A DNA stretch of 64,000 bases from an uncultured Alphaproteobacteria bacterium (GCA_934254925.1 CAKQMD010000001.1:13266-77265), one strand, 5' to 3'; numbered from the stretch's first letter, positions 10,681-60,269 are shown. Made by a program: numbers and translations. Notes: a model not told the origin generated them from the sequence alone.

Positions 10681-10683
10681 TAA

Positions 10684-13316: not shown

Positions 13317-13595
13317 TTTCAATTTTCCTACTTAAAAGCTTAAAATTATCATAGTTTTTAGTCCGATAACTGCACAGTATGTAAATTCCCATTGCTTTGC
13401 AATGGGCCCCTTTCGTCCCGTAAGGTTCAAACTTCGCTTACCGCTCGTTTTCACCAACTATCGACTCCGCGCACCATTTTTAAAAAAGCACCTTTCAAGG
13501 TGCTTTTTTGTTATGTAAACCAAACCTTTCAGTCAGTCCGCTTTTGAGTTTTTTTATAAATGCACTTTTTCGCTGATTTATCGGACTATTGACCA
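13317..13595. repeat. att-like repeat copy D (with an 88-bp hairpin-containing insertion) of the tRNA-Thr cassette array
   Basis: Same 5' module and core as copy C. The extra segment 13381-13468 (cccattgctttgcaatggg palindrome) is inserted between ...gcacagtat and cgcgcaccattttt. Confidence 0.7.
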
Positions 13596-13703
13596 AAACG
13601 TTGTAGACCTTAGACCTCATATCCCTGTCCAATAATTGTACCCCAAGAAAATTGACGGGAACGGCTTTGTGAAATCATTCAAAGGACCGATCAAGCCCGA
13701 ATG

Positions 13704-14703: not shown

Positions 14704-15081
14704 CTATTTGTAGACCCAAAACTTTTGCAAAGGAAAAGAAAACAGCGGAATTGTCAGGACAATGACCAAAACCGTCGCCCAATAGGGCCAGAGCATTTTG
14801 ACGCCGGCCCAGGTCAGAGCTTCGCTGTACAAAAACATCAGCAGGCTCAACAGTAGATATTTGCCAAACATGCCCGTATTGCCGCGTCTCAAACAAAAGG
14901 TGACGCGCATTTGCCCAAAATATCCGGCGACAATGCTGCAACCATATCCCACCAATGTCGAACTTAAGGCCTCACCGCTGAAAAAATAAGCTAGGTTTGC
15001 CGCCAACAAATACACCAGACTGGCCAGGCCGCCGATTATCAGATATTTTACGATTTGTCGTTTAAACAAGCCGTTCATCAT
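14704..15081 (-). CDS. GtrA-family small polytopic membrane protein (lipid-linked sugar translocation)
   Basis: 125 aa with 4 TM helices and a KYLIIGGLASLVYLL-type N-terminus typical of GtrA. Its start overlaps the upstream gene (ATGA). Confidence 0.55.
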   Translation of the reverse strand: MMNGLFKRQIVKYLIIGGLASLVYLLAANLAYFFSGEALSSTLVGYGCSIVAGYFGQMRVTFCLRRGNTGMFGKYLLLSLLMFLYSEALTWAGVKMLWPYWATVLVIVLTIPLFSFPLQKFWVYK

Positions 15082-17669: not shown

Positions 17670-17682
17670 GACGAACTCCGGA

Positions 17683-18558
17683 TTAAATTATTTTTACAAA
17701 AATCAAAAAGACATAGATCAAATAAGCTAGGCAGGTCAAAAACAGCGGCTTGTCGCGGTACAGGTTTTCCGTCGGGTCTTCTTCCGACGAAGGGGCGGTA
17801 ATGATATTCAGATAATGAAAAATTCCGTAGACGACAAAAACAACGCTATAGATCATCCGGTTGGTCTCAAAACGTTCCAACGTCGCCGCCTCCAAGGTAT
17901 AAAGCGCATAACTCATAATCGTGAGAGCAGCGGTAATCAGCGCATAGGCTTTCAGCCCTTCCAGCGAATAAAGCTGCAGGACTTGTCTGGTCTCCTTGTG
18001 CTTGGCGGCTTCCGACAAGCGTTTGGAAAAACCGAGGAACAAGCTTAGAAACAGCGTCGTCATGAAGATATAGCTCGAGACGGGAACACCGATGGCATAA
18101 GCCCCGGCATAAACCCGCAGAATAAAACCGGCGGCGATGACAAAGACATCCAAAATCGCAATATGTTTCAGCCGCCAGGAATATAAAATATTGACCGCGA
18201 CATAGGCCGCCAAGACCAACAACAACTTAAAACGCTGATCCACCGGAGCAAAACAAGAGACGGCCAAAGCCAAAAGCAACAACAAAAAAGCGACCAAACG
18301 AGCGGAAAGAACCGAAATTCGTCCGGCGGGCAAAGGCCGCAGCCTTTTGCGCGGATGCGCCTTGTCGGCCTCCATGTCGGCAATGTCATTGTTGATATAA
18401 ATGAAAGACGCGGCCAGACAAAACGCAACAAAGGCCGAAACCGCCTGCAAGACGGCTGCGGCCTCCAAAAACTTAAAAGAGAAAAACAACGGCGCCAGCA
18501 CAAAAACGTTTTTTACATATTGTTTGACGCGCAGTAGGCGAAGTAAATCTTTAACCAT
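17683..18558 (-). CDS. UbiA-family polyprenyl-phosphate 5-phosphoribosyltransferase (DPPR-synthase-like)
   Basis: 291-aa membrane protein with YINNDIADMEADKAHPRKRLRPLPAG, i.e. the NDxxDxxxD motif followed by the basic P-loop-like stretch characteristic of decaprenyl-phosphate phosphoribosyltransferase (Rv3806c family). Confidence 0.65.
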   Translation of the reverse strand: MVKDLLRLLRVKQYVKNVFVLAPLFFSFKFLEAAAVLQAVSAFVAFCLAASFIYINNDIADMEADKAHPRKRLRPLPAGRISVLSARLVAFLLLLLALAVSCFAPVDQRFKLLLVLAAYVAVNILYSWRLKHIAILDVFVIAAGFILRVYAGAYAIGVPVSSYIFMTTLFLSLFLGFSKRLSEAAKHKETRQVLQLYSLEGLKAYALITAALTIMSYALYTLEAATLERFETNRMIYSVVFVVYGIFHYLNIITAPSSEEDPTENLYRDKPLFLTCLAYLIYVFLIFVKII

Positions 18559-19039
18559 GAAAATATCCTAAAAAGGAGATGAAATACAACACGACAGCGG
18601 CATAAACGCCGGCGAAAACGTCATCAAGCATGACGCCCCAAGCATTGGTCAGCTTGCTGTCTGCCCATTTGGCCGGGCCAAGTTTGAAGATATCAAAAAA
18701 ACGAAAAAGAAAAAAGCCGATCAGATAAAGTTCCCAATGCGTCATCTGACCGACCAAAAGAGGTGTCACCAGGCTAAACGTCAAAAGCTGCCCGACGGCC
18801 TCGTCAATCACAACGATTGAAGGATCCTTGTTTTTAGAGGCGTCAATCACCTGAGCCGTGGCCCAAACGCCGACAAAAAATACACCGACGGCCAAAAGCA
18901 GCAGTCCCGGCAAGCCGTAAAAATAAATGACGGCCGCGGCAAAAGGCAACGTTCCGAAAGAGCCGGCCGTCCCCGAAGCGAAGGGAAAATAACCAACGCC
19001 GAGGCAAGAAGCCAAAATATATCCCAATTTTCTTTTCAT
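18551..19039 (-). CDS. phosphatidylglycerophosphatase A family (PgpA-like) lipid phosphatase
   Basis: 162 aa, MKRKLGYILASCLGVGYFPFASGTAGSFGTLPF... PgpA N-terminal signature. Overlaps the UbiA-like gene by 8 nt (operon). Confidence 0.65.
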   Translation of the reverse strand: MKRKLGYILASCLGVGYFPFASGTAGSFGTLPFAAAVIYFYGLPGLLLLAVGVFFVGVWATAQVIDASKNKDPSIVVIDEAVGQLLTFSLVTPLLVGQMTHWELYLIGFFLFRFFDIFKLGPAKWADSKLTNAWGVMLDDVFAGVYAAVVLYFISFLGYFHG

Positions 19040-47762: not shown

Positions 47763-48146
47763 TTAAGCTCCGTCTTTTCCTTCGTCCAAACGGTGCAACG
47801 GCGTTTCACAGCCTTCCTCGTCGATGATTTGGAAATAAAAATTTTCTTTGATCCGAATGCCAAACGGCAGTTTTTGCAATTCGCCAAAAACAAAACGATT
47901 GACCAAAACCAGCACTTTTCCCCAACAATATCTGTCTTCCAACAAATCTAGAAGCTGCTCTTCGCTGATTGCGGCGGTTTGGCAATGAAAATCGTCGATC
48001 ATTTCGATCCGATGGCCGTATTTCCGGCGTATTTTTCGGTTCCAACACTCGGCACGGACGGCGGTAACCCGACTCCGCGCATCATACAAAATTTTTCTGA
48101 CATCGGGAACCGAAAGGGAACAATCCTTTATGGCTTTTGTTTCCAT
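47763..48146 (-). CDS. hypothetical protein
   Basis: 127-aa ORF, low GC. Separated from the phage-like operon by a strong hairpin. Confidence 0.35.
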   Translation of the reverse strand: METKAIKDCSLSVPDVRKILYDARSRVTAVRAECWNRKIRRKYGHRIEMIDDFHCQTAAISEEQLLDLLEDRYCWGKVLVLVNRFVFGELQKLPFGIRIKENFYFQIIDEEGCETPLHRLDEGKDGA

Positions 48147-48238: not shown

Positions 48239-48277
48239 CTTCCCCCGGTTAATGCAAAAGACAATAACCGGGGGAAG
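48239..48277. terminator. strong bidirectional terminator hairpin at distal end of phage-like late operon
   Basis: cttcccccggtta-N13-taaccgggggaag (13-bp stem) flanked by aaaaaaaa and tttt. Confidence 0.6.
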
Positions 48278-48279
48278 TT

Positions 48280-48471
48280 TTAACGCGGGCATTTGAGTTT
48301 GATGTCCTGCCATTTGCGGATCACCGTTACCAAATCCGGCGGCAGTTCGGCGCCTTCTGCCAATACCATGGCAAAAGCCTTTAAAATTGCATCCAGCTGA
48401 TCGCCGACGGGCAGTTTCTTGGCATATTCCCGAGCACGCCGCTGTTTATATGTTAATCTCGGTCTGGGCAT
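48280..48471 (-). CDS. small hypothetical protein (phage-like module)
   Basis: 63-aa ORF at the distal end of the operon. Confidence 0.3.
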   Translation of the reverse strand: MPRPRLTYKQRRAREYAKKLPVGDQLDAILKAFAMVLAEGAELPPDLVTVIRKWQDIKLKCPR

Positions 48472-48483
48472 GATCTGTTCCTT

Positions 48484-48942
48484 TTACCTAACTTGCTTTT
48501 CACTGTTTATGGTATCCAAAGCGCCTGAAAAACCGCTGATAATCTGCTGATCTGCCTTAAATTTGGCTTTTTTCCTGAGATTATTGTTTTCCAGATAATT
48601 GGTCTTCATCATATGGTCCATATCATCATAGCCTTCTTTAATCAGACGGTTTTGTGCCGCCAGGGCCGAACCGCTGCCGACAATCCCCATGCCGCCGAAA
48701 GCAGCCCGACGCGACGCCAGTTGCTGATCCAACAGGTTATTGCGCTTCTTCATATTATAAGCCGTTTGGGCATTGTTCATGCTCATCTGCCGGCGTGCGG
48801 CCTTTTTGGTTTGGTTGGCCTTATAGAAGCTGTTAAACAGATCTATTCCCATGCCGGCTTGTTTTCCGGTAGCCATTCCCATAACTGTCGAACCTATACC
48901 TCCCATTTTATTTCTCCTTTCAATTTTTAATTTTAACTTCAC
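48484..48942 (-). CDS. phage-like hypothetical protein (Gly/Met/Asn-rich; possible gp13-like virion protein)
   Basis: 152 aa. Immediately downstream of the gp12-like gene, as gp13 is in T7. No motif. Confidence 0.4.
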   Translation of the reverse strand: MKLKLKIERRNKMGGIGSTVMGMATGKQAGMGIDLFNSFYKANQTKKAARRQMSMNNAQTAYNMKKRNNLLDQQLASRRAAFGGMGIVGSGSALAAQNRLIKEGYDDMDHMMKTNYLENNNLRKKAKFKADQQIISGFSGALDTINSEKQVR

Positions 48943-50827
48943 TCGTCGTCGCCAATAAGGTAAACGACGCCGGAATATCGCTGCGGATGCTCCATAGCGG
49001 TTTGTTCAGCTCCCGAACCCAGCCCAATGCATGCAGCTCAAGATCGCCGCTGTAATTGAGGGCCGGAGCATCGAGTATTTTGTCCCGATACAGACGTTTC
49101 ATCGGCACTTCAAAGTAACCGTTACCGATATCCAACCGCAAAGATTTGGTATCCAGAACGCGGAAAATCGCCCGAATGATTCGTGCAGCCTTCGGCGGAA
49201 ACGGTTTGGCAGCGTCAACCATAAAAGGAAGAGGCTCAACAATATGCTCATAAGGATAACCGATGATAATTTCTTTGACCGGATCGCTCAAAACCAAAGT
49301 TCCGTCAGTGATTTTGAAGTTTCCCAAAGTATAACCGTCGCCGATGACGGCCACGAGTTTGTCCTCCAAATAATCCAGTCCGGTCCAGGTATCTTTGGGG
49401 GTTTCCGAGGTAAACTTCTTTCCGCAGTCAACATAATAATCAGGGACAAGCTTCTCAATATAGTATGAACCGTCGCGTTCTACAAAAAAGTACATTTCAT
49501 CATTGACGACGGCAGCGGAAAGAAACTTGCCTTCGGTTTTCAGCACACTCCAGGCATTGACCTGTTCTGAGCGATAAGTCGTCAGACAGGCTGCCGTCCC
49601 GTCCCCACACAGAATATACAAAATGCATTCGTCCTGATGATAGATCATCTCCTGCGGATTATTGACAAGCTCCGGCGCCAAGAGAGACAGGTCTTTAGCC
49701 TGATAGGCCTGCTCAACGTCCGCAAACAAGAATTCGCGAAGCTGTCGACCGTTTTGCGACATAAACAGCGTCGCTCCGTCAACATTCGGCGGCGTCAACG
49801 ATCGCTTGTTATAGCTGCCGATATTGGTCTGGCGGTTCAATTTGAGGCTTTCAGGCGTCAGAGGTTCTCCGCTCACCATCCACTCGGCGCCGGTGGTAAA
49901 CACCAACAGGTGACGAGAAGAGACGACGTTCAAAATCGCATTGACCTGATCGGAGAGAATGGCGAAATCAATTGCCTCGTCATCCAGCCCGGTGCCAACA
50001 TCAAAGTTAAACAAATCTGACGATTTGGAAAGCCAAAGGTGGTTCGGCAGAGACTTTGATCCGCCGATCACCATGCGATCCTGATGGAAGGTAACCGAGG
50101 CAGGATAGCCGCGTTTGGGCGAAAACGCCGCTTCTTCCCAATCCGTCGTCGGCTCGTAGTCATCAAGAATGTGGCTGAGCGTCATCTGAATATTTTTCGC
50201 ATCAATAAAAGAATTGACCACTCCTTCTCCGTTTCTGAGACGGATGCGCGTACCAAGGTATGATTCGTCAAAAATCGGATTATCGGCGGTCAGAACAATC
50301 GTTCCGACATTGTTGCTGGGAGAGATGCGTTCCTTCTTTTTGAAAAAATTGTAATACGGGCACTGCGTATAGCCGTTGTCCGTATAAAAAGTCCACTCCT
50401 TGATGCTCCAAACGTCATTGTCCGTCCGGCTGATTTCACGCGGGGGAACGTCGGGATGAACGACCAAAAGCGTATCGGCACTTTGAGTCCAGTTGATCTT
50501 TTGGACCTGCTCCAACGTCCAAGGACTTTCCAGCGTGGTAATACATTCGTCGTCACGATAGACTTTTACTGTTTTTTCACCGAAATACAGCAGATAGACT
50601 TGTTCGGTATTAAACTCAAAAGAAATCAGGCGGCCATTGCCGGAGAGTTCGTCAACATATTTCAGTCCTTGTCGCCGTGAAACACCGCCCGTCGGATAAA
50701 TAATCACGTTTTGCAAAGTACGGGCGCCATTGGCATAGACGTTCAGATCCCCCCGGCCAAAGATTTTTGAAGAAACTTGACCGGAGGTAAAGTTTGTTTT
50801 TACCGAAATCGGGTTGTTGCTGCTCAT
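48920..50827 (-). CDS. tail tubular protein B-like (T7 gp12-like) nozzle protein
   Basis: 635-aa beta-rich protein directly downstream of the gp11-like gene. Start overlaps by 4 nt. Assignment rests on synteny and size. Confidence 0.45.
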   Translation of the reverse strand: MSSNNPISVKTNFTSGQVSSKIFGRGDLNVYANGARTLQNVIIYPTGGVSRRQGLKYVDELSGNGRLISFEFNTEQVYLLYFGEKTVKVYRDDECITTLESPWTLEQVQKINWTQSADTLLVVHPDVPPREISRTDNDVWSIKEWTFYTDNGYTQCPYYNFFKKKERISPSNNVGTIVLTADNPIFDESYLGTRIRLRNGEGVVNSFIDAKNIQMTLSHILDDYEPTTDWEEAAFSPKRGYPASVTFHQDRMVIGGSKSLPNHLWLSKSSDLFNFDVGTGLDDEAIDFAILSDQVNAILNVVSSRHLLVFTTGAEWMVSGEPLTPESLKLNRQTNIGSYNKRSLTPPNVDGATLFMSQNGRQLREFLFADVEQAYQAKDLSLLAPELVNNPQEMIYHQDECILYILCGDGTAACLTTYRSEQVNAWSVLKTEGKFLSAAVVNDEMYFFVERDGSYYIEKLVPDYYVDCGKKFTSETPKDTWTGLDYLEDKLVAVIGDGYTLGNFKITDGTLVLSDPVKEIIIGYPYEHIVEPLPFMVDAAKPFPPKAARIIRAIFRVLDTKSLRLDIGNGYFEVPMKRLYRDKILDAPALNYSGDLELHALGWVRELNKPLWSIRSDIPASFTLLATTSEVKIKN

Positions 50828-51444
50828 TGTCTCGCCTCCACCAGGGTAAAGTCTTCAAACTTGCGCGGCGTGGCCTGCTGGGCATCAATCAAACGAGCCT
50901 GAGTGATGGCATCTTCCGCCAAACGCGACAGAAAATCCGCCCGCGTCGTGCTTTCGGTCAGAGGAATGCAGAACTCTGCGGCCAATCGTGCCATCAGTGC
51001 CTCAACGAAAAATGCGGGAAAAGTGTCTACATGCGGCCGAAAGATATAAGTGATGGTTACATGTTCGGCATTGGTATGCATTTTGTTTTCAAAAATGCGG
51101 TATTCCAGACCGCTGCCGCGTCCGGCATTGCCTGCCGAGATGATCCGCAAAAAATCATATGGCAGAGCATAAGCGTATTTGAAATCCGCCAAAGGCCTGC
51201 TTTCCAATCTGGCCAAAGTTTTTTGACCGACGGCAAAACTCCAGGGATAAGAAGAAAGCAACGCATCCCTAATCTGGGGATAGAGGTTCGCCGCCACTTC
51301 GGCTTCGGCCGTTCCGTCTTCAAAAGACGTCAGGGGCGAAGCGCCGATTTTGATTAAAGCGTTTGAACATAAATTCACATCTGTTATTGTCATTATTTTT
51401 CTCCATTTAAAAAGGATGGCGGCAACCGCCGGGGCTGCCGCCAT
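50824..51444 (-). CDS. tail tubular protein A-like (T7 gp11-like) adaptor/gatekeeper
   Basis: The N-terminus ALIKIGASPLTSFEDGTAEAEVAANLYPQIRDALLSSYPWSF aligns by eye with T7 gp11 [42 protein letters not shown]. 206 aa vs 196 aa. Confidence 0.6.
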   Translation of the reverse strand: MAAAPAVAAILFKWRKIMTITDVNLCSNALIKIGASPLTSFEDGTAEAEVAANLYPQIRDALLSSYPWSFAVGQKTLARLESRPLADFKYAYALPYDFLRIISAGNAGRGSGLEYRIFENKMHTNAEHVTITYIFRPHVDTFPAFFVEALMARLAAEFCIPLTESTTRADFLSRLAEDAITQARLIDAQQATPRKFEDFTLVEARQ

Positions 51445-51487
51445 ATCACTTTTGCTAATAGGTATTTAAAATTTATATTCGGGAAGG

Positions 51488-51754
51488 TTATTCAGTATCC
51501 GCAGCCGGACCTGCCACCTGGGAAACACTCACCGTACCTTCGGCATTGGCAGAAACTACCAAAATGGCCGTTTCCAACGTGCTGGAAGTGGAGGCGTTGA
51601 CCAAAATCATGTCACCGACACGGACAAAGGGCGCCGTCTCGTTGAAATATTTAGCGGTCTTGACCGTTTCCAAAGTATCGGTCGTTGAATAGTTCCACAG
51701 CGTGAAGCCGTTGGCATAGGCCAGAACACTGAAAGATTTGGTATCGTAAGACAT
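51488..51754 (-). CDS. hypothetical small protein between capsid and gp11-like genes
   Basis: 88-aa ORF, Thr/Ser/Ala-rich. No motif. Confidence 0.3.
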   Translation of the reverse strand: MSYDTKSFSVLAYANGFTLWNYSTTDTLETVKTAKYFNETAPFVRVGDMILVNASTSSTLETAILVVSANAEGTVSVSQVAGPAADTE

Positions 51755-51785
51755 ATTCTTATCCTTTCATAATATAAATTAAAAA

Positions 51786-52625
51786 TTAAGCTTCTTTGCA
51801 TTTGATGCGGACGACGCCGTCTTCATCAATCAGGCAGGACCCCTGGCTCATCATGTTATTGATGAAGTGGGCGGCATGGTCGCCGTGCCAGGTGATGTCG
51901 GATTTGACGTCTTGTCCCGAGGCATGGCCGATGGCCGTCTTGTGGAAAAGGAAGCAGTCGCGGGCTGTGCCGTTGAGCGGCAAACCGGTGTGCATGATCC
52001 AGTTGATGCCCAACCAACGGCGGCTTTCCGTCCCTTTCAGGAAGGGCATGTTGTCGCCGGCATATTCCGAGCTTGAAAACTCGGGAATGCTCAGCAAGGC
52101 ATTCCATTGAAGCGGCCCGAGAATGGCAAAACGCTGGCCGTCATCAGGAACATTGTTGCCGTTCAGCTTGGCAAAGGCGTTCAAAATGGTAGCTTTGTCC
52201 AAAACCTTGGTTCCGTCACCGACATCGTTTTTGGCAGAGGCCGAGGCCAAGGCGCTGATGATCAATTCATCGGTCTTGCGGCCGAGGGCATAAGCGCCGG
52301 CATTGACGATAACCTGACGTTCGTCAATGCTCAACTTGATTTCGTCCAAAGCATCAACCCAATCGCCGGCATAGTAATCCTGCAATTCGCATTCGATCGG
52401 CGTGTGATCAATGCTCATCACCGGTACCAGGCCGTGACGGGCTTTGTTGGAGGCAACGCCTTTGCCTACCTTCTGAAAAACGGTCGAAGACCCTTTGACG
52501 TTGTTTTTGTAACGAACACAGTTCTTCAGTTTAGAACCGGTCTGCTGATAAGACAGGTGAACGTCCGCCTGAAATTGTTTGACAAAAGAATCGCTTACTT
52601 GAATAGACATATTTTTATTCTCCAT
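51786..52625 (-). CDS. major capsid protein, T7 gp10-like
   Basis: 279 aa. Positioned after the scaffold gene. Segmental similarity to T7 gp10A by eye (IDERQVIVNAGAYALGRKTDELIISALAS vs DVRSEYTSQLGESLAMAADGAVLAEIAGL; NNVPDDGQRF vs KNYVPAADRVF). Confidence 0.5.
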   Translation of the reverse strand: MENKNMSIQVSDSFVKQFQADVHLSYQQTGSKLKNCVRYKNNVKGSSTVFQKVGKGVASNKARHGLVPVMSIDHTPIECELQDYYAGDWVDALDEIKLSIDERQVIVNAGAYALGRKTDELIISALASASAKNDVGDGTKVLDKATILNAFAKLNGNNVPDDGQRFAILGPLQWNALLSIPEFSSSEYAGDNMPFLKGTESRRWLGINWIMHTGLPLNGTARDCFLFHKTAIGHASGQDVKSDITWHGDHAAHFINNMMSQGSCLIDEDGVVRIKCKEA

Positions 52626-52651
52626 TTAAAGTTTTGAGTTAAAATTTTTTA

Positions 52652-53341
52652 TTATTTATCCGGGTAAAGGCTTTGGAAGCCTCTGGTAATTTTGTTAACG
52701 TAGGCTTTATCGTGATCGCGCCAATAACGGGGATCTTCCATCATTTTGCGCAGATTCTCTTCGGTCAGTCCGCCTTCGATCGAGCCTTCGCGGGAAAGTC
52801 CCGGTTCGTTGGAAGACATCATTTTATAAAGGGTGATAACGCCTTCTGCAGTGGTGGCCAGAGCGTCATAAATATCAGAGTTGATATTCTGACGGGCCCA
52901 GGTCGAGATCTGCCGGGAGACCTCGGTGAATTTATCCTGGCCGCCAAAATAGCGAGCCAGTTTCTCCATCTGCTTTTCGGCTTCAAAATCAACCGCCAAC
53001 TGGTCCAATACCGGAATAACCCGCTCGTTGGCCAGATCATAAACCAGCTGGGCCTGGTCATTGGTGAAGCCTTTTTCATAAAAACGCTTCAAGACTTCAT
53101 CATCTTTAGCCAGAAAAGGATGGTTGATATTCAGATCATACTGATCATAGCTGGCCGGCACCCGACGAAGATTTCCCTCCACCAGGTTTTCGTCCCGGGA
53201 AGCCATGTAGTTGTAATCTTGAATCAATTCATCCAGTTTGACGCTGCCGGTTGCGGCATCCCAAAATTTTTCGGGAAGTCCCATGGGTTTGCCTGACGAA
53301 GCAGCGGCAAGCAACGAGTCCATTTTTCTGTTGTCGTTCAT
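52652..53341 (-). CDS. scaffolding protein, T7 gp9-like
   Basis: Acidic 229-aa protein between the portal and capsid genes. The C-terminus LRKMMEDPRYWRDHDKAYVNKI resembles the T7 gp9 C-terminus MIKAMSDPRYRTDANYRRQVEQKVI. Confidence 0.5.
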   Translation of the reverse strand: MNDNRKMDSLLAAASSGKPMGLPEKFWDAATGSVKLDELIQDYNYMASRDENLVEGNLRRVPASYDQYDLNINHPFLAKDDEVLKRFYEKGFTNDQAQLVYDLANERVIPVLDQLAVDFEAEKQMEKLARYFGGQDKFTEVSRQISTWARQNINSDIYDALATTAEGVITLYKMMSSNEPGLSREGSIEGGLTEENLRKMMEDPRYWRDHDKAYVNKITRGFQSLYPDK

Positions 53342-53355
53342 TTATTTCTTTCCTT

Positions 53356-53583
53356 TCATTCAATATCCGGATTCCGGAGCGTTATGATTTTGCTTACTAA
53401 ATGCCGCTGTCCTTCCAGGTGACGTAATTCATCCGCCGAACAATCCGGCCCGAGGTAACGCTCGAGAGTCATTCTTTTTAAAAAAGAGAGGACAATTTTG
53501 CCCTCTCTGGTTGAAAAACACTTGACAAACGCCTGTCGAATCTCTTCTTCAGACATTTTCTTGGTGTCATATGTTTCCTGCAT
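53356..53583 (-). CDS. small hypothetical protein
   Basis: 75-aa ORF between the portal and scaffold genes. Overlaps the portal end. Confidence 0.3.
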   Translation of the reverse strand: MQETYDTKKMSEEEIRQAFVKCFSTREGKIVLSFLKRMTLERYLGPDCSADELRHLEGQRHLVSKIITLRNPDIE

Positions 53584-55165
53584 TGAGCGCCTCCTCTTCC
53601 GTCAACGCTTGCGGCGTAAAGCCGGCCGCAGCGTCTTCCGGAACAACCGGAAGCGTTTCAACAATCAGGTTGGACGGCACGTTTAATGTGCGTCCCAGCC
53701 ATTTGGCGGTTTCAAAAGCATTGACCGCCGCCAAGGCTTCGCCGCCGAAAGAAGCCAGCTGGCTTACCCATTCGACGACATTGCCGACGTCTTTGCGCGA
53801 TTGCAAAAGCGCCAGCGGAGATTTGTACTGCAGATCCACCACTTTGCCGTCAAGGTCAAAGTTTAAGACATCACCGCGCCGCCGCAGGATGAAGAATGCC
53901 CTTTTCAGCAAGGGAGTCAGCAGTTCCGTCTGCAGGCGTCCGAAAGTTGCCCCCAAAAGGCGCGCCATCTCGGACGAACGTTCCAAAACCTCAGTCGCCG
54001 TCATTGAGGGAACGGCAACCTGGGCCAGACGGTCAGCCAGCAAGGCATGATTGATGCGCGCCCGCAAATCCTCCAAAACCAGCTGCGAAATATCAAATTT
54101 TCCCGGCGCTTCCAGCGGCGTCAGTCCTTTTGAACCAACGGCCTTGGGAATAATGGCCCCGGGTACGAGCTTGATGTTTGACGGATTCAATACGCCGTCG
54201 TCATCCGCCTGCCAAATGCCGGTGACGGCAATCGAGGCGTTTTTCAAAATCAGCTCAACGACTTTGTTGGCGGTTTTGATGTCCGGCAGGGCCTTCATCA
54301 CCGGTGAGCGTCCGTAAACTTCTCCCGGCGCCTTGAGCCAGCGGAAGTTGATAAACGGCGAGGTTTCAAAAATGCCCTCACGCAAAACGACATGGCTGTC
54401 GGTACCGGTGTTTTCATCCCAGGCAAATGCCGTGTATTCATAGCCGCAGGTGCCGCAAATGCCGTTTTGGGGAATGACCGCCTCAATGACCTTGACACGG
54501 TAATCGCTGTCGTCATGGTAGCGTTCTTGCCATTCCGAAGGAATTGCCGCTTCAGGAAAGCGGACTTGCAGTTCGTCAACGGAAGCTGAAAAACTGCGAA
54601 AAGTAGTGTCGATTTTTCCCGTTCCGCTTTCCTCCAGGGCGATTTCCCTTAAAGGAACGGCATAAAAACGAAAAGCCGAAGCTTCCCCCAAAGGCGCCTC
54701 TTCAAACATCAGACAAGCCGTTCCCGCCGTAACCAGATCCAAGTAACATTGGTGGATTTCCACAGCAAAATTGGAGTGCTCAAAGTTTTGTAACAAAACA
54801 TCGGCCGTATTTTCCAAAATCGGGCCGATTTGTTGCCTTTCCTCCGGACTGAGTTCAGGTCCGGCTTTCAGACCAAACCATTTGGCCCAGGCCGGCGTCA
54901 GTTCCGATAACAAGGAAGAAGCCAATTGGTCAACGGCATCGGCAGCAGTTCCGTCAAAAAGCTTCAGGTTTTTCTTGCCGCCATCATTTAAGACGGCGAG
55001 GTTGCTTCCCGAACCTTCCCGCTGCGGCAGAGCATATTCGTAACATTCCTGCCAGTGGGAAACCCAATTTTGTTTACGCTGCTCGGCTTTTTGATAACGG
55101 CTGAGCAAGCGTTCAATCTTGTTTTCCATGTTATTCTCCCAACAAATTTTTACGATTGAGTCCAT
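53567..55165 (-). CDS. portal (head-tail connector) protein, podovirus/T7 gp8-like
   Basis: 532 aa vs 536 aa for T7 gp8. Collinear similarity by eye (ERLLSRYQKAEQRKQNWVSHWQECYEYALP vs ERLKNDRAPYETRAQNCAQYTIP; LDLVTAGTACLMF vs LKQLVVAGNVLLY). Its position before the scaffold and capsid genes is diagnostic. Confidence 0.6.
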   Translation of the reverse strand: MDSIVKICWENNMENKIERLLSRYQKAEQRKQNWVSHWQECYEYALPQREGSGSNLAVLNDGGKKNLKLFDGTAADAVDQLASSLLSELTPAWAKWFGLKAGPELSPEERQQIGPILENTADVLLQNFEHSNFAVEIHQCYLDLVTAGTACLMFEEAPLGEASAFRFYAVPLREIALEESGTGKIDTTFRSFSASVDELQVRFPEAAIPSEWQERYHDDSDYRVKVIEAVIPQNGICGTCGYEYTAFAWDENTGTDSHVVLREGIFETSPFINFRWLKAPGEVYGRSPVMKALPDIKTANKVVELILKNASIAVTGIWQADDDGVLNPSNIKLVPGAIIPKAVGSKGLTPLEAPGKFDISQLVLEDLRARINHALLADRLAQVAVPSMTATEVLERSSEMARLLGATFGRLQTELLTPLLKRAFFILRRRGDVLNFDLDGKVVDLQYKSPLALLQSRKDVGNVVEWVSQLASFGGEALAAVNAFETAKWLGRTLNVPSNLIVETLPVVPEDAAAGFTPQALTEEEALNAGNI

Positions 55166-55331
55166 CTCCGCTGTTGGTCGGCTGCAAAACGCCTTTATAG
55201 GACGTCTTAATGGTGCTTTCCATGCCGCGACGCCGGCGTTCCATTGCCTTTTTGCGTTCTTCTTCCTCGGTGTCGATTACCGGCTCCGGAGCCGGCGCCT
55301 CGATTTTAGGCGCACTAAATATTCCTCCCAT
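55131..55331 (-). CDS. small hypothetical protein
   Basis: 66-aa ORF overlapping the portal start. Charged and Pro-rich. Confidence 0.2.
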   Translation of the reverse strand: MGGIFSAPKIEAPAPEPVIDTEEEERKKAMERRRRGMESTIKTSYKGVLQPTNSGDGLNRKNLLGE

Positions 55332-55354
55332 TTTCTTTTCCTTTCTTGTTTAGG

Positions 55355-55891
55355 TTATGACAATTTTTTGACGACCCGCGTCAACAGGCCGGCAGATTTT
55401 GTTTTTTTCGTCCTTTTTTCGGGGGTGCTTTTGACCACCGAAACGCCCAGCACTCCGAGGGCCAATCCCCAAAGCGAGGCCGTTTCCATCAAAGCCGAAA
55501 TGATTTCGGCCGCTTCGCCGCCGTCGACAATAGCCACATAGCAAACGGTCAATATGGTCAACAGCCACGCAAGAGCAACCGAATAACCGAAGGCCGGGCG
55601 CCAAAAACGCACGAACTTATCTTCAGCCAGAATTTCCTGTCGGAGATCACGGTTAATCTGTTCTCGAGCTTTGCGATCAAGTCCAAGGTCGATATTTCGG
55701 CCACGAACAAGGTGACGATCGGCTTCGGCAATTTGTTCGGGCGAAATTTCCTCCCGGACAATTTCTTTCCCAACGTCGTCCAAAGCCTGACCGGCTTTTT
55801 GAGCCGTTTCAGTGTTCAAACGCAGCAGCGAAAGGCTCAAAACCTTTATTAAAACAGGCAATCCGATTTTGCCCAGCAATCTGGTAATCAT
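55355..55891 (-). CDS. membrane protein, candidate holin
   Basis: 178 aa with two C-terminal TM helices (FGYSVALAWLLTILTVCYVAIV and LWGLALGVLGVSVV). Sits next to the lysin gene. Confidence 0.3.
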   Translation of the reverse strand: MITRLLGKIGLPVLIKVLSLSLLRLNTETAQKAGQALDDVGKEIVREEISPEQIAEADRHLVRGRNIDLGLDRKAREQINRDLRQEILAEDKFVRFWRPAFGYSVALAWLLTILTVCYVAIVDGGEAAEIISALMETASLWGLALGVLGVSVVKSTPEKRTKKTKSAGLLTRVVKKLS

Positions 55892-55895
55892 CGTT

Positions 55896-56321
55896 TTACT
55901 CCTCTATATCATTGTAAAAAACATGGCGGCCGATCTCCGCGCAGGGGATCTTGCCGACAGACCAGGCCGGACGAAGATTCCTGGCATGATAATGCGTTGC
56001 ATTCATGGTTTTGTCTTCCAAGACATCGGCAATCGCCCGCAAGGCAATCCGTTTGCAAATACAATAGTTGACGTCAGTCTCAGAAACGTTAAGCAGTTTT
56101 TCGTAGTTGGGATCGTTTTTGTTCCAACAGGAAAACTGCCAAGGCGCCTGACAGACTTCCGCAATGGTATTTCCCCACCAATAGCGTCCTTTGCGACGGC
56201 TAAAGCTGACCCGGTTCATAATCACCGAAGCCACAGCCTCCTGCCCGGAAATGCTTTCGCCCCGCGCTTCGCCATAGATGGTTCGCGCCAAGATATCAGC
56301 CTCTTTCAATCTTTCGTTCAT
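55896..56321 (-). CDS. cell-wall hydrolase, SleB/Hydrolase_2 family (phage lysin)
   Basis: ILARTIYGEARGE ... VASVIMNRV ... WQFSCWN motifs of the SleB-like lytic enzyme family. Confidence 0.8.
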   Translation of the reverse strand: MNERLKEADILARTIYGEARGESISGQEAVASVIMNRVSFSRRKGRYWWGNTIAEVCQAPWQFSCWNKNDPNYEKLLNVSETDVNYCICKRIALRAIADVLEDKTMNATHYHARNLRPAWSVGKIPCAEIGRHVFYNDIEE

Positions 56322-56605
56322 CGGTTTCTCCCTACCTGATCCAATTTTTTCTCAATGCGCAGCAAATGGTCCGTCAGCCTGGTTTCGACGTCTTTGAGAT
56401 AGCTTGTCGACACATAGTTGCGGGCCACGTGCAGTTTGAAGTCTGCCAAGGCCTCTTTGGCCATGGCAACCCCGTGTTCGCCGTTTTGCTTGTAGAGCAG
56501 CAGACTGTCCTCCAGCTCTTTCTTGTTTTTCATGACCAAGCGAAAAATGGCCACAAAAATAGGCAGCTCAATCATGGCTGCCCAGGTTAAAATATTGTTC
56601 ATCAT
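56318..56605 (-). CDS. membrane-anchored coiled-coil protein, candidate i-spanin (Rz-like)
   Basis: 95 aa. N-terminal TM helix (ILTWAAMIELPIFVAIFRLV) followed by a predicted coiled coil. Located between TerL and the lysin, overlapping both. Confidence 0.3.
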   Translation of the reverse strand: MMNNILTWAAMIELPIFVAIFRLVMKNKKELEDSLLLYKQNGEHGVAMAKEALADFKLHVARNYVSTSYLKDVETRLTDHLLRIEKKLDQVGRNR

Positions 56606-56617
56606 AAAAATCCTTTT

Positions 56618-58123
56618 CTAAACCTCAAAACTCGCGTCAGCACTAAACTGATCTGCCCCTCCCTGCCAACCGGGCGCTTTGACATCCGCCGCGGAAGAGA
56701 GTGACGGCAATCGAACGGGTTCCGAACTCAGGCAACCGGCGACCGCATCCAAGGCATCATCATGGGCTGATCCCGAAAGGCTCCATTCCCGCATTTCCTC
56801 GATAAAACCGGTCTGCCATATCTTGTGATGAACATGGAGTGCCCGTTCCGCCAAAAGGACTTCAAAAGCCTCCAGAATCCTTTTTTCCTTCGCCGAGGAG
56901 GAAAACATCTCCAAAACGGCCGCCCGAATTGACAAAGCGGCCAGGCGCTGTTTTAGAATTCCGGGCAAAAACCGGCCGATACCGTTGGCTTCCACCCGAA
57001 CGGAAGGCAAATGGTTGCGGCGAATAAATTCCGCCACGGCATCGCATTGCATGGAGGCGGCGTTATCTGCCTTTCCTTCCGCAATGCGGATATATTCCAA
57101 ATCATGCAGCCAGGTCGTCCCGTCTTCAGCCGTAAACACGCAGGCAATTACTGAATGATCGCCTTTGGCTGCGGCAAATGAAGGATCCCACCAACAGGAG
57201 GCCGAAACCATCCGGCGCGGTCCGATTTTCAGGATCTCGCGATTATTGGCATAGCTTATGCTTATTTCCTCGCGATAAGGAACCAAACGAGAGGGATCAA
57301 GCACGGCATCAACGACATTTACCGGCTGTAGCATCATTTGGGAGAGAAACTTGTTTTCTCCCGAACGGCTGCGAATCGAAGCAATCTTGTCTTCCGGAAA
57401 ACGCTCCGGCCAGGCTGACCGGCCTTCGGCATCCAACAGAGGCAGCTTCAGACTATCAAAGTTGAGCAAAAACGGCTCCGTTTCCGGTTTGGCGGGATCA
57501 ACCTCCGTCTGATAGATGGTATAATAATTATGAGGCGTCCCGATATAAAGCTGGAACCCCTCAGGCGTCAGAATATAGTCAAGTTCGTTTAAGCGTTCGC
57601 GGAGATCACGGCGCTTTAAGGCGGTGTCGCAGGTTTTTGGGACTTCAACGTCATCACAGATGATGAGGTCAGCCCGCAGGCCGGTGATGTTGGCGCCGAG
57701 CCCTTTGGCCAGCATGGACGGGTCCCGCAGTTCCATCCGTCGGTTCACCGTGAACTGATCGGAAGCCCATTGGTCCAAACGCGCCGGCTTTAACCTCTTG
57801 GTCAGCGGATGCTGTTCAATAATCCTTTTGACGTTGCGTACCATTTTTTTAGCCAGGGCATGATCCGCCGCCATGACCAAAATCCGGGTTGAACTCCGGC
57901 AGTACAAAACCCAGGCGCAAAATAAACCGACTATCGTTGATTTTCCGGAGTTGCGAAAGGCCATCAGCAAAGCCTGACGGCTTCCCGGTTCCGTCCATAA
58001 CCGATTCAGCCAACGGGCAATACGCTTTTGATGACGAGGAACGGAAAGACCTTGAAGCCGAAACCAGACAAAAACAAATTCATAAAAATTTATTTTCTCT
58101 GTCGACATCATCTTCTTCGTCAT
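56618..58123 (-). CDS. phage terminase large subunit
   Basis: 501 aa. Walker A AFRNSGKST, Walker B LIICDDVE, and a C-terminal RNaseH-like nuclease region with conserved acidic residues. Confidence 0.85.
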   Translation of the reverse strand: MTKKMMSTEKINFYEFVFVWFRLQGLSVPRHQKRIARWLNRLWTEPGSRQALLMAFRNSGKSTIVGLFCAWVLYCRSSTRILVMAADHALAKKMVRNVKRIIEQHPLTKRLKPARLDQWASDQFTVNRRMELRDPSMLAKGLGANITGLRADLIICDDVEVPKTCDTALKRRDLRERLNELDYILTPEGFQLYIGTPHNYYTIYQTEVDPAKPETEPFLLNFDSLKLPLLDAEGRSAWPERFPEDKIASIRSRSGENKFLSQMMLQPVNVVDAVLDPSRLVPYREEISISYANNREILKIGPRRMVSASCWWDPSFAAAKGDHSVIACVFTAEDGTTWLHDLEYIRIAEGKADNAASMQCDAVAEFIRRNHLPSVRVEANGIGRFLPGILKQRLAALSIRAAVLEMFSSSAKEKRILEAFEVLLAERALHVHHKIWQTGFIEEMREWSLSGSAHDDALDAVAGCLSSEPVRLPSLSSAADVKAPGWQGGADQFSADASFEV

Positions 58124-58454
58124 CTTCGTCTCTCGCTTCCCTTAATAAATTCAATACATCCTCTTCCGGACTTTCGGACACGTCGTCAATCGGTTCGTCT
58201 TCGGTCCACTTGGCCAATTTCAGCAAAGTTTCGGCATGCACCACGGCCGACTTGCAGGCCGAATGGTGCGCGCTGAAGCCTTTGGCGTCATCGGGTATGG
58301 GTTGCTCAGAAAAATTTTCGTAGCTGTTAATCACTCTGGAAATTTTCTCCGGCAGCGTTTTTTTGAGCTTGGCTTTTAGTGCTTTGAGAGTTTTTATTTT
58401 TCTTATAATCATGTTATAAAACGTCTCCAAAATAAAAAAATACCTGAAAAACAA
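58080..58454 (-). CDS. candidate terminase small subunit (acidic C-terminus)
   Basis: 124-aa ORF overlapping the TerL start. Basic N-terminal half, poly-acidic C-terminal tail (DEDDEEDDVD). Position suggests TerS but there is no motif. Confidence 0.3.
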   Translation of the reverse strand: MFFRYFFILETFYNMIIRKIKTLKALKAKLKKTLPEKISRVINSYENFSEQPIPDDAKGFSAHHSACKSAVVHAETLLKLAKWTEDEPIDDVSESPEEDVLNLLREARDEDDEEDDVDRENKFL

Positions 58455-58530
58455 CGACTTGTTCTTCAGGCGGTCAGTTTATTTTAGATACACTACTAGC
58501 AAGTGATGTTTTAGGGATAACAAAAAAAAA

Positions 58531-58947
58531 TCACTTTGTCAAGAGTTTTTTCCTACTCTTGTTAATTTTATTATAAAGCTGAAATGGCGTAATAGTAAAA
58601 AAGCTATGAATTCCCAAGGCCCTTTTGACAAACTCCACGCAGGTAAAAATATTCACAGGGGCACATTTCAACGGTGCACAGGCAATGTTAACCTTGCATA
58701 CCCGACAGCCTCGGTACCGCAGACTTTGCAGATAAAGTTGAGGATCCAGCGTCTGGCGAAAGCAAACAAAAAACTGATTGGATAACGGATTGAGCTCCAG
58801 AAAAGTCCGGTTATCCTCCAAAAGATACAAAAGATAACAATGGCGGAATCCGGGCTTAAGCAGACGCAACCACCACAAGCTCGTTTCATCGGCAAAAACA
58901 ACATAAGCCTGGCTAAAACTCTGCCGATCTTCAACAGAAAGCCGCAT
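58531..58947 (-). CDS. hypothetical protein (Cys-rich)
   Basis: 138-aa ORF upstream of the TerS-like gene. CRVCKVNIACAPLKCAPVN cysteine cluster. Confidence 0.3.
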   Translation of the reverse strand: MRLSVEDRQSFSQAYVVFADETSLWWLRLLKPGFRHCYLLYLLEDNRTFLELNPLSNQFFVCFRQTLDPQLYLQSLRYRGCRVCKVNIACAPLKCAPVNIFTCVEFVKRALGIHSFFTITPFQLYNKINKSRKKLLTK

Positions 58948-59301
58948 TTATAAATTTCCCAAAATGTTTTTGGCCCGCAGATAGACGTCAAACCATCGAA
59001 TAGCTTCCTCCCACAGGATGATCTCGCTCTTTTTGGCGCGGCGGTCATAGTAAGGCGTACAAAATAAGCCGCCCCAGCGGTAGAGAACGCGCAGATGGCG
59101 GTTGGTAATGCAGTTGTCGGCTTTCATACGCTTGAGAATCCCCTCAATATCTCCCAGTTCACAATCTCGGGGAAGGCCGGGATAGTCTGACTTGGAACGC
59201 AGGCCGTTTCCTCTTACCAACAGACAGCTGCAATACCAAAACCAAACTTCTTCGGCATTATTAAAAGGTTCATAGCGCAAACTCATACAGCCTCTCCACA
59301 C
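58948..59301 (-). CDS. hypothetical protein
   Basis: 117-aa ORF abutting the previous ORF. First gene of the minus-strand operon, divergent from the repressor. Confidence 0.3.
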   Translation of the reverse strand: MWRGCMSLRYEPFNNAEEVWFWYCSCLLVRGNGLRSKSDYPGLPRDCELGDIEGILKRMKADNCITNRHLRVLYRWGGLFCTPYYDRRAKKSEIILWEEAIRWFDVYLRAKNILGNL

Positions 59302-59340
59302 CTTAACAAATTATTAACAAAAATATTTATACAATAGGTT

Positions 59341-59376
59341 GTAGGAATTTCAATAATAAAAAGACTTGATTCCTAC
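59341..59376. promoter_or_regulatory. candidate operator: 8-bp inverted repeat gtaggaat-N20-attcctac in the divergent promoter region
   Basis: Perfect inverted repeat at 59341-59348 and 59369-59376 in the 134-bp AT-rich intergenic region between the operon start and the repressor gene. Confidence 0.3.
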
Positions 59377-59435
59377 TTTTAATAGTTTATATTATAGTTC
59401 GTATCGGTAAAATTTAAGGATTTTGAGGAATTAGC

Positions 59436-60056
59436 ATGCAATGTGAGAAAATTTGGAAGGCTGTTGATAAGTTAGCCGTGAGCCAGGGACTCTCCGTCTC
59501 TTCTTTGGCAAAAAAATCCGGTTTGGACGCAACAACTTTCAACAAAAGCAAAAGAATGCGCAACAACAAATACCGTTGGCCGTCTTTAGACAGCATCAGT
59601 CGCCTTCTGGATGTCTGTAATCTCAGTTTTGATCAATTTTACGACATGGGATGCGACGGAGCGATGCCGGAAATAAAAACGACCATTCCCTATATTCGTT
59701 ACAGTGGCTTGTCGCGTCAGCAGCACATCAAAGATACGCGTCTGAAAACCGAAAGCTGGCCGCGCAAAAGTTTTATCGACGTTCATTCCGACACATATGC
59801 CGTTTTGCTTGACGAGGGCAATTTCGCCCCGATTTATCGTCCGGGAACAACCCTGATCATCACTCAAACCGTTAACATTCGCAACGGCGATCGCTTAATT
59901 ATGTACCTTAATGACGGGCAAATTATCATCAAAGACTTTGTGCAACGAACGCCGAGTTCAATTATTGTGGCGGATTTGGTGCATCCCGAACAGCAATCTG
60001 ACATTCCCTTAAAGAAAATACGTCTGGTCAATCGTGTCTTATGGGCCAGTCAATAG
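59436..60056 (+). CDS. CI/XRE-like transcriptional regulator with LexA/S24-like C-terminal domain (catalytic Ser not evident)
   Basis: N-terminal HTH (LSVSSLAKKSGLDATTFNKSKR). C-terminal beta-rich domain with GDRLIMYLNDGQIIIKDF resembling the S24 fold. A G-[DS]-SM active-site motif was not found. Confidence 0.45.
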   Translation: MQCEKIWKAVDKLAVSQGLSVSSLAKKSGLDATTFNKSKRMRNNKYRWPSLDSISRLLDVCNLSFDQFYDMGCDGAMPEIKTTIPYIRYSGLSRQQHIKDTRLKTESWPRKSFIDVHSDTYAVLLDEGNFAPIYRPGTTLIITQTVNIRNGDRLIMYLNDGQIIIKDFVQRTPSSIIVADLVHPEQQSDIPLKKIRLVNRVLWASQ

Positions 60057-60269
60057 CCGGAGAAAAAAAATGCCATGCAAAGAGCTTGAACAGGAACTAA
60101 GATACGAGACTTTGCCGCTTTCTCCACAACCGGACGGCGCCAAAGCCTTTGACAAAAACTGCCTGACGCAGACCTTAAACATCGCCCGCTGTCGACATAA
60201 AGGCTTGGCAACCGAAAAGCTGGAAAAAGACTTGCAGCTGACGCGGCGCCATGCCATAAGGTATCATGA

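Follow-up and report, generated by a model that had tools for sequence, protein, structure and literature searches.

Phage-particle systems known to have been domesticated independently are few, and the discovery of further ones is a recognised problem (PMC11841831). The recognised families of gene-transfer agents (GTAs) derive from ancestors other than T7-like podoviruses (PMC9662315). The locus described here lies in a 64,000-nucleotide stretch of DNA from an uncultured Alphaproteobacteria bacterium (GCA_934254925.1, CAKQMD010000001.1:13266-77265), referred to below as the window, in which ~48.28-60.27 kb is occupied by a single co-directional minus-strand operon and a divergent plus-strand regulator gene. 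With a probability of roughly 0.7, this element is an anciently domesticated, particle-producing remnant of a T7-like podovirus of the type of Pelagibacter phage Hodr that has become fixed in the chromosome. An earlier note on the window, made from the sequence alone, had left the choice between a heavily decayed prophage and a host-controlled locus producing T7-like heads, and had held that no podoviral GTA has been described. The latter statement is outdated, since a podovirus-like, GTA-like element, FpGTA, has been reported from Faecalibacterium (PMC12946183). In the literature searched, FpGTA is the only GTA-like element reported as podovirus-like, and it belongs to another phylum, Bacillota; the full texts searched, an incomplete collection, yielded no account of a domesticated T7-like cluster or of a podoviral GTA in Alphaproteobacteria. 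A paper on an 'ancient prophage' of Sphingomonadales was considered as a description of the same element and dropped, as it gives no sign of this and the terms T7-like and podovirus are absent from its text.

RcGTA (Rhodogtaviriformidae) and the element have several traits in common: a phage-derived cluster of head, packaging and tail genes without replication or integration genes, vertical inheritance under purifying selection, release by holin and endolysin with a holin of the same family (PF11351), and the circumstance that some components, e.g., fibres, may be encoded elsewhere. Despite these likenesses, RcGTA is siphovirus-derived, possesses a tail tube and a tape measure, and has a portal, capsid and large terminase subunit (TerL) of other families, whereas the window encodes a T7-type portal (PF12236) and a gp11/gp12-type tail with neither tail tube nor tape measure; the PF11351 holin is all that the two share. 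Control of RcGTA lies with CtrA, GafA and quorum sensing, in contrast to the repressor and Q-like factor predicted for the element. Its T=3 head takes up ~4 kb, less than its own cluster, whereas the head of the element would probably exceed the 12-kb locus. FpGTA, which is set beside the element by its description and not by protein comparison, packages random 8-9-kb host fragments, as seen experimentally (PMC12946183); DNA transfer by the element, in contrast to transfer by RcGTA, is a prediction made from its genes. PBSX, the pyocins and the AlpR-AlpA system resemble the element in being chromosomally fixed, silenced by an S24-family or Xre-type repressor, and turned on by a small positive factor (PrtN or AlpA) that activates a long late operon with lysis as its outcome. 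PBSX and pyocins differ in having contractile or flexible tails, the pyocins being headless, whereas the element has a T7-type head, a stub tail and, in the window lineage, a dead S24 domain. Capsid-forming phage-inducible chromosomal islands (cf-PICIs) are likewise small elements with their own capsid, portal and terminase and an incomplete virion. They are mobile, carry integrase and replication genes, and lack tail parts; the element, in contrast, encodes adaptor and nozzle, has neither type of gene, and keeps a fixed position.

The structural genes follow the T7-type order gp8-gp9-gp10-gp11-gp12 and are accompanied by a T7-type terminase. The set required for procapsid assembly (portal, scaffold and capsid) is complete, and the products for packaging (TerL and the putative small subunit TerS), portal closure (adaptor and nozzle) and lysis (holin, SleB hydrolase and o95) are all encoded. 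The earlier note had named these genes, and Pfam and PHROG profile matches agree with it, including those for the nozzle, adaptor, capsid, scaffold and portal open reading frames (ORFs) that it had equated with T7 proteins (Table 1); the DPRY motif that it had pointed out is present near the scaffold C-terminus. Its list of absences stands as well. Within or beside the element in the window, no integrase, replication, RNA polymerase or internal-core gene was found, the flanks being host genes, and a search across all 64 kb returned no homologue of the c16 tail fibre family. A single-subunit RNA polymerase and DNA replication genes of its own, as in a T7-like prophage, are lacking both here and in the neighbourhoods of relatives, and so are equivalents of the gp14-16 core proteins 3′ of the nozzle gene. 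An Rfam scan of the element gave chance-level matches only. Host genes adjoin on either side, namely a HAD-like gene and YhdP on one and an amino-acid permease and an RND efflux system on the other, and GC content is equal in element and flanks. The earlier note had considered that genes of the same phage might lie immediately beyond the window; conspecific contigs that extend past its end carry AmiC, PBP1A, RF-2 and a hydrolase there instead. The remaining window content is of a housekeeping nature (TopA, flagellin, a class-I tRNA synthetase, ClpB).

Portal relatives occur in at least 581 species-representative genomes, and the best 80 of them are nearly all alphaproteobacterial by record label. 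Portal identity amounts to 65-75% in metagenome-assembled genomes (MAGs) from the gut and to 53-62% in Magnetospirillum/Phaeospirillum, Paramagnetospirillum, Telmatospirillum, Terasakiella, Caenispirillum, Thalassospiraceae, Magnetovibrio and Micavibrio. Cultured carriers include Phaeospirillum molischianum DSM 120 and P. fulvum MGU-K5 (both listed under Magnetospirillum names); Caenispirillum salinarum, Terasakiella, and several Magnetospirillum and Paramagnetospirillum species are further carriers. Three loci (L024, L056 and L058) combine the element and typical alphaproteobacterial flanks with the labels of Lactobacillaceae, Solirubrobacterales and Bacteroidota MAGs, and are probably mis-binned or mislabelled records. 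Searches with tblastn identified a common gene set comprising the regulator, o117, o138, o66, portal, Bbp19, scaffold, capsid, o88, adaptor, nozzle, o152, TerS, TerL, o95, SleB and holin. For the distant lineages, tblastn was combined with precomputed gene calls because the ORF caller mis-called antisense frames in high-GC genomes. Gene order is T7-like with the terminase and lysis genes last, and in the clade of gut Alphaproteobacteria (the gut clade) the block from TerS to the holin has been relocated ahead of the portal gene.

These copies stand at clade-specific syntenic positions, as the earlier note had expected of a GTA locus rather than of a prophage, and its option of a host-controlled locus gains accordingly: domestication is strongly supported and reaches well beyond this genome, to more than 580 species in four clade-specific chromosomal contexts. 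In ~25 gut-clade species, the left flank is formed by RF-2, hydrolase, YhdP and HAD genes and the right flank by abhydrolase, SBP, MlaC, GltX and CysS genes, relative to which the window's own right flank is rearranged. A LysS context is common to Telmatospirillum, Thalassospiraceae and Magnetovibrio, a FolE-ApaG-SDR context to the Magnetospirillum group, and a third further context (PurC, NAD kinase, phosphoribosyltransferase) to three genomes. Host-type genes even reside inside the cluster and are kept across genera: at the junction of scaffold and capsid genes, an MBL/ODP and MCP pair or a PilZ gene is found on the opposite strand, and one Magnetospirillum copy carries a radical-SAM gene after o88. 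The pair (MBL/ODP-like and MCP-signal) is present in 13-15 loci of one clade group and the PilZ-domain gene in another (L163:10890-12487, L081:9467-10156, L172:13396-13770, L173:13723-14112); these signalling genes may regulate the element, or they may be passengers that entered at an insertion hot spot.

Between gut-clade species, synonymous sites are saturated (synonymous divergence, pS, ~0.75), but the structural genes have all stayed intact in 27 genomes. The ratio of non-synonymous to synonymous substitution (dN/dS), taken over gut-clade pairs with dS below 1.5, indicates purifying selection, with values of 0.046 for TerL, 0.049 for the portal, 0.059 for the adaptor, 0.060 for the nozzle and 0.077 for the capsid, next to 0.041 for host YhdP and 0.040 for host GltX. 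Pairwise non-synonymous divergence of five element genes follows that of four flanking host genes in this clade (Mantel r 0.98; 0 of 5000 permutations); for portal and flank in the LysS and FolE clades, r is ~0.6 (49 and 9 of 5000 permutations, respectively). Within the species, contigs from GCA_944392195.1 and GCA_964311575.1 are 98.7% and the Logan contig ERR7745346_27539 is 100% identical to the window. The four strains contain no stop codon and no frameshift, with a pN/pS of 0.087, and the pseudogenisation that the earlier note had named as contrary evidence is not seen.

A slowly decaying defective prophage without present function would account for the many missing phage functions, for a truncated copy in one lineage (L174) and for the lost catalytic residues of the regulator in the window lineage. 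It would not account for structural genes that stay intact at a dN/dS of 0.05-0.08 while synonymous sites saturate, for conserved non-coding control elements, or for persistence across whole families at syntenic positions. The tests of selection and co-divergence effectively refute this explanation already, which makes it very improbable, and the heavily decayed prophage of the earlier note does not hold up against intact genes, syntenic flanks and a divergence that tracks the host.

Integration into the chromosome by an active agent is an alternative that the neighbourhoods of the copies address. Integrase, replication and polymerase genes are missing from the Pfam-annotated neighbourhoods of seven independent lineages, which contain host genes only, and neither an att-like boundary nor a primase gene is evident at the copies inspected. 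An active minimal temperate phage would have to rely on host replication and an unlinked recombinase for integration at a fixed site; a head of the 32-34-kb type could take up its entire 12 kb, and segments imported within species might be read as a trace of its movement. Such a phage appears scarcely credible, as the flanks vary between clades and are fixed within them, the cluster is interrupted by host genes, no repeat or att boundary is evident, ejection proteins are lacking, and distances in element and host flank correlate with an r of 0.98. The lack of integrase, replication gene and att site, the fixed position and the host genes inside the cluster make both an autonomous temperate phage and a mobile satellite unlikely.

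The satellite deserves consideration in view of the nearest true viruses. These are Pelagibacter phage EXVC031P Hodr (OQ414635.1; 34 kb) and Vibrio podophages of 32 kb, e.g., 1.254.O (MG592620.1); among cultured phages, portal identity reaches at most 35% and capsid identity at most 42%. Hodr shares with the element the portal, Bbp19, scaffold, capsid, o88, adaptor, nozzle and SleB as well as the N-terminal anchor of the c16 fibre family, and the Vibrio podophages share portal, capsid, adaptor, nozzle and o138, the last encoded between TerL and portal genes. Gene order is T7-like in all of them, but identity is only 22-42%; the SleB hydrolase (44%) and the Bbp19-like protein (49%) have closer homologues in Hodr, and a hidden Markov model of the o88 family matches Hodr at 1e-14. 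Both types of phage have early and replication regions, fibres, and huge proteins encoded after the nozzle gene, whereas the element has no early or replication region and no huge proteins. In the Vibrio phage, a small gene after the nozzle is followed by genes for proteins of 713, 1049 and 917 amino acids, in Hodr by genes for proteins of 783 and 1247 amino acids, and these occupy the position of the T7 gp14-16 internal core. In the window, only ORFs of 140 and 63 amino acids follow the nozzle gene. Of the 42 copies in which 4 kb or more of sequence follows the nozzle gene, none encodes large core proteins; the only large ORFs there correspond to c16-type fibres or overlapping stop-free frames. 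Since the core proteins are missing in all copies examined, loss of the ejectosome is ancient and family-wide rather than a matter of recent decay. Fibres have a different history. Their absence, listed in the earlier note for the window, extends to the gut clade and Telmatospirillum, in both of which the fibre has been lost. Most lineages outside the gut clade, however, carry a variable c16-type fibre or spike directly after o152, in which the anchor is conserved and the distal parts, pectate-lyase-like or collagen-like, vary. Variable fibres and spikes in the non-gut lineages suggest that particles adsorb to cells.

These missing functions match exactly what a related helper phage encodes. 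A helper-dependent satellite might thus build its own heads, packaging machinery and proximal tail, obtain core proteins, fibres and replication from a co-infecting Hodr-like podophage, and spread in hybrid particles. Repressor-based control of the SOS type, segments that look recombination-imported within species, and homologous fragments in viral-labelled collections point in the same direction. In contrast to what is expected of a satellite, integrase, replication initiator or primase genes and att-bounded mobility are absent at every copy inspected, position is stable within clades, host genes lie inside the cluster, element divergence follows host divergence, and no close helper is known, the best portal match being 35% identical. 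We therefore regard a satellite as distinctly unlikely. As to the viral-labelled collections, IMG/VR contigs with the element are all at most 25 kb long except for one of 94 kb, and the two gut-type contigs inspected still bear the host HAD gene at one end. A faecal 'Bacteriophage sp.' record encodes a portal with 74% identity; it is unannotated and unverified, and uninformative on packaging.

The presumed repressor of the operon is the divergent protein with a helix-turn-helix (HTH) and an S24 fold, whose gene adjoins the element in nearly all loci, and the inverted-repeat operator proposed for it in the earlier note is a perfect repeat. All lineages conserve the intergenic region between regulator and o117 genes. 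In gut-clade loci, the repeat TAGGAAT-N20-ATTCCTA (59376-59341) overlaps the -35 element TTGAAA of promoter P1, the position and hexamers of which are kept across gut-clade loci. Repeats of the form AGGAAn-N14-26-nTTCCT are found in 21 of 27 gut-clade loci (0.04 expected), and a single AGGAW box precedes a TTGAC -35 element in 36 of the 41 other loci. A LexA-type repeat lies further downstream and reads GTTA-N7-GTTA in the window (59318-59304). The relaxed form GTT[CA]-N7-GTT[CA] is present in 39 of 68 loci (0.7 expected) and the strict form GTTC-N7-GTTC, which is the canonical alphaproteobacterial LexA box (PMC4951493), in 22 of 68 (0.15 expected). Inside the window alone, the relaxed form is not enriched (5 found, 5.9 expected); its significance derives solely from positional conservation across loci. 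When aligned to LexA, the regulators of Magnetospirillum, Terasakiella and Thalassospiraceae retain the AQ^AG cleavage site, GDSM and the Lys. The combination of LexA box and self-cleavage signature in these lineages makes SOS induction a well-supported prediction for the family. A gene of the PF00156 phosphoribosyltransferase family directly adjoins the regulator gene in one clade (L172:7949-8650, L173:8098-8775, L174:8154-9095). ComF-type competence proteins are members of PF00156, and the adjacency may be coincidental.

Downstream of o138, the layout of promoter P2 (TAGGAA, TTGACA, extended -10) is kept in 44 loci. The strict box GTGTRTCYRAA just 3′ of o138 is found in 25 of 77 loci, compared with 0.006 expected per window, and a hairpin with T-run 40-130 nt 3′ of o138 in 57 of 77, compared with 26% of random windows. 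This terminator keeps its structure, differs in sequence between loci, and stands in front of the first late gene in every case. For the P2 leader, the idea of a conserved RNA hairpin was dropped, since the pairing partners differ from clade to clade and conservation is limited to the sequence box. The arrangement of promoter, box and terminator resembles the lambdoid pR′-qut-tR′ region, and by this analogy the product of o117, a candidate antiterminator with a Q/AlpA-like fold, would open the late operon by antitermination. Homologues of o138 belong to the morphogenetic module of Vibrio phages, and uncharacterised phage proteins share its fold; it may act as a protease or as a virion-associated wall hydrolase. 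Profile searches against PDB sequences with o138, o117 and o152 gave no match below an E-value of 0.4.

Taken together, these elements suggest the following course of events. The regulator would bind the TAGGAAT...ATTCCTA operator across the P1 -35 element. In most lineages, a self-cleaving LexA/CI-type repressor and the host-LexA-type box GTTC-N7-GTTC behind P1 would render the locus inducible by DNA damage; in the gut lineage, the cleavage residues are gone and the box reads GTTA-N7-GTTA, and the inducing signal may be a different one. P1 would drive o117 and the papain-like hydrolase o138, and o117 would allow RNA polymerase started at P2 to pass the terminator at 58471-58442 and enter the ~10-kb late operon. 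T7-type heads would then be built, filled with DNA by the T7-type terminase, closed by adaptor and nozzle, and released by lysis. The same circuit is reminiscent of AlpR/AlpA and PrtR/PrtN, and the lysis cassette within the operon together with lineage-variable fibres or spikes, as in bacteriocin specificity modules, could point to a stress-induced suicide or killing module in which lysis of the AlpR-AlpA-alpBCDE type or a PBSX-like, bacteriocin-like particle is selected instead of DNA transfer. We consider this unlikely, given that lysis alone would not keep TerL, portal, capsid, scaffold and nozzle at a dN/dS of ~0.05, that a podoviral stub tail is not equipped for contraction or for puncturing membranes, and that the gut clade is entirely devoid of fibres.

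A domesticated, particle-producing locus raises the question of who benefits. As the element can neither replicate nor integrate, any benefit falls to the host population, and GTA-like DNA exchange would most likely be that benefit. The features by which GTAs are recognised (PMC9662315) are found here in the form of a structural and packaging cluster without replication and integration of its own, and of vertical inheritance under purifying selection, the latter as measured on linked flanks and with some within-species recombination. A GTA role would therefore fit the evolutionary signature. We put GTA-type DNA transfer by the locus somewhat short of even chances. Equally tentative is the broader proposal of a third, independent alphaproteobacterial GTA or viriform lineage, derived from a T7-like podovirus, controlled by an SOS-type repressor and an antiterminator, and present in hundreds of species from human-gut Alphaproteobacteria to Magnetospirillum, that would move host DNA between cells; in the absence of ejection proteins, entry into recipients would have to rely on host uptake machinery.

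Several observations weigh against domestication for particle production and, in particular, against DNA transfer. Particle formation, DNA cargo and delivery are all predicted from the genes. The nearest phages, with capsids 33-42% identical, package 32-34 kb, so that the head may hold the whole 12-kb locus, a departure from the classical GTA criterion of a capacity too small for this. A second departure from classical GTAs is that no device for moving DNA across the recipient envelope is recognisable; without gp14-16-type core proteins and, in the window, without a fibre, the route of DNA across a Gram-negative envelope is unexplained. The window regulator reads SG-LS and GNF at the positions in question, having lost the catalytic Ser and the Ala-Gly site and retained the Lys; it is thus not of the self-cleaving LexA/CI (S24) type, and the LexA-type box is degenerate. 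Co-divergence was assessed solely on linked flanks and is less pronounced in the other clades than in the gut clade, and most carrier genomes are MAGs. Within the species, pS rises to 0.25-0.30 in the SleB and holin genes and 0.086 in the nozzle gene, as opposed to 0.002 in the YhdP flank, and this mosaic divergence indicates occasional replacement of segments of the element by recombination. Finally, the copy at locus L174 is clearly decayed, although an old cluster with vertical inheritance can be expected to include such partial copies. Expressed as percentages, the SleB-holin segment (55355-56321) differs by 7-9.5% and the nozzle gene by ~2% from L164, L165, L166 and L168, the adjacent YhdP gene being 99.9% identical, which resembles allelic replacement limited to parts of the element. 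In L174 (9139-15544), the regulator is cut to 82 amino acids, the split capsid gene is joined to the SleB domain, deletion has removed the tail and terminase genes, and the holin gene persists beside host genes.

Table 1. Genes and control elements of the locus, from the highest to the lowest position in the window
Feature	Position	Strand	Remarks
Small ORF, ~67-79 amino acids	60034..60273	+	Cluster c23 in 22 gut-clade loci; position conserved
Regulator, XRE-type HTH and S24 fold	59436..60056	+	Pfam S24 4.6e-5, HTH_26 2.4e-4
Operator GTAGGAAT-N20-ATTCCTAC	59341..59376	.	Arms 59376-59369 and 59348-59341, perfect inverted repeat
Early promoter P1	59325..59353	-	-35 TTGAAA 59353-59348; -10 TATAAA(T) 59331-59325
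Direct repeat GTTAATAATTTGTTA	59304..59318	-	Between P1 and first gene; positional equivalent of LexA box
o117, 112 amino acids, first gene of operon	58948..59286	-	Candidate Q/AlpA-like antiterminator or sigma-region-4-like regulator
o138, permuted papain-like (NlpC/P60-type) cysteine hydrolase	58531..58947	-	Signature gene of the element
Late promoter P2	58514..58555	-	TAGGAA 58555-58550; -35 TTGACA 58542-58537; extended -10 TGT-TATCCC 58522-58514
Conserved box AGTGTATCTAAA (also written AGTGTRTCYAAA) in P2 leader	58483..58494	-	Candidate pause or antiterminator-loading element
Intrinsic terminator, 13-bp stem and T-run	58433..58471	-	Between early genes and TerS
Putative TerS, 110 amino acids	58080..58412	-	Assigned by position only; phrog_31793 (unknown function) 1.6e-42
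TerL, T7 gp19 type	56618..58123	-	phrog_38 3.1e-82; PF22530 T7 RNaseH-like domain
o95, lysis accessory (spanin- or antiholin-like)	56318..56605	-	Transmembrane helix at residues 5-23 and helical domain; phrog_29007 1e-30
SleB-type cell-wall hydrolase (endolysin)	55896..56321	-	PF07486 5.5e-21; phrog_938 endolysin
Holin with three transmembrane segments	55355..55891	-	PF11351 GTA_holin_3TM 8.6e-6; three hydrophobic segments; phrog_3427 holin
o66, small protein, MGG start	55131..55331	-	59-member cluster, always just before portal gene; weak phrog_831 match
Portal, T7 gp8 type	53567..55165	-	PF12236 8.9e-137; phrog_332 5.3e-114
Bbp19-like small protein	53356..53583	-	PF25181 7.8e-14
Scaffolding protein, T7 gp9 type	52652..53341	-	PF05396 3.1e-15
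Major capsid, HK97 fold, Phage_capsid_2	51786..52625	-	PF19821 1.4e-75; phrog_3437 2.9e-77
o88, small acidic protein, possibly head accessory	51488..51754	-	phrog_18004 1.3e-21; 3′ of capsid gene
Adaptor / tail tubular protein A, T7 gp11 type	50824..51444	-	phrog_394 8.4e-52
Nozzle / tail tubular protein B, T7 gp12 type	48920..50827	-	PF25675 3.8e-10; phrog_376 4.6e-140
o152, fast-evolving helical protein, ~140 amino acids	48484..48906	-	MGG start at 48906; dN/dS 0.58
o63, small basic protein, 63 amino acids, last gene of operon in gut clade	48280..48471	-	19-member cluster; dN/dS 0.14

Several genes call for comment beyond the table. The coding status of the small ORF 3′ of the regulator gene is uncertain: it has a dN/dS of 0.68 and no Pfam match, and it is called as a 67-amino-acid gene in locus L164; if it is included, the element ends at ~60273. 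P2 overlaps the 3′ end of o138. TerS starts with the ATG at 58412, overlaps the TerL start, has a dN/dS of 0.09, and is called with the same 110 amino acids in loci L164-L168. The closest phage matches of TerL are found in T7-like podophages at no more than 33% identity. The gene for o95 always precedes the SleB gene. In phages, the internal-core module begins with a small gene, whose position o152 occupies, and hhalign aligns o152, weakly, with a 159-amino-acid protein of Hodr (E 0.011) and with the small post-nozzle protein of Vibrio phage 1.254.O (E 0.1). In loci L026 and L027, o63 adjoins TerS. Directly beyond the element, an ORF of 127 amino acids (47763-48146), which has no family match and no homologue among the related loci, marks the rearranged right flank specific to this genome.

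Elsewhere in the window, the minus strand of 15078-19039 contains an 863-amino-acid ORF (15078-17669) without Pfam match and two downstream ORFs, and this stretch shows an extreme AT skew of up to 0.36 at 17-19 kb. The region 10000-14000 has a low GC content of 0.32-0.37, as opposed to ~0.49 elsewhere, adjoins a tRNA-Thr gene (10487-10561), contains genes for a histidine phosphatase and a Ham1-like protein, and may represent an acquired islet. The flagellin encoded at 5190-7274 is unusually long (694 amino acids), with an Lcl_C-like domain between the conserved N- and C-terminal helices.

A T7-like podovirus would constitute a new type of ancestor for such systems, with carriers that include Rhodospirillales (Magnetospirillum, Telmatospirillum, Caenispirillum, Terasakiella) as well as gut Alphaproteobacteria. 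The control circuit is legible and open to manipulation and, as cultured strains carry the element, particle formation and cargo are directly testable. Loss of the ejectosome in a system that keeps head, packaging and nozzle bears on how podoviral DNA might be delivered without a trans-envelope channel. If active in gut Alphaproteobacteria, the element would open a path for gene flow within the human microbiome.

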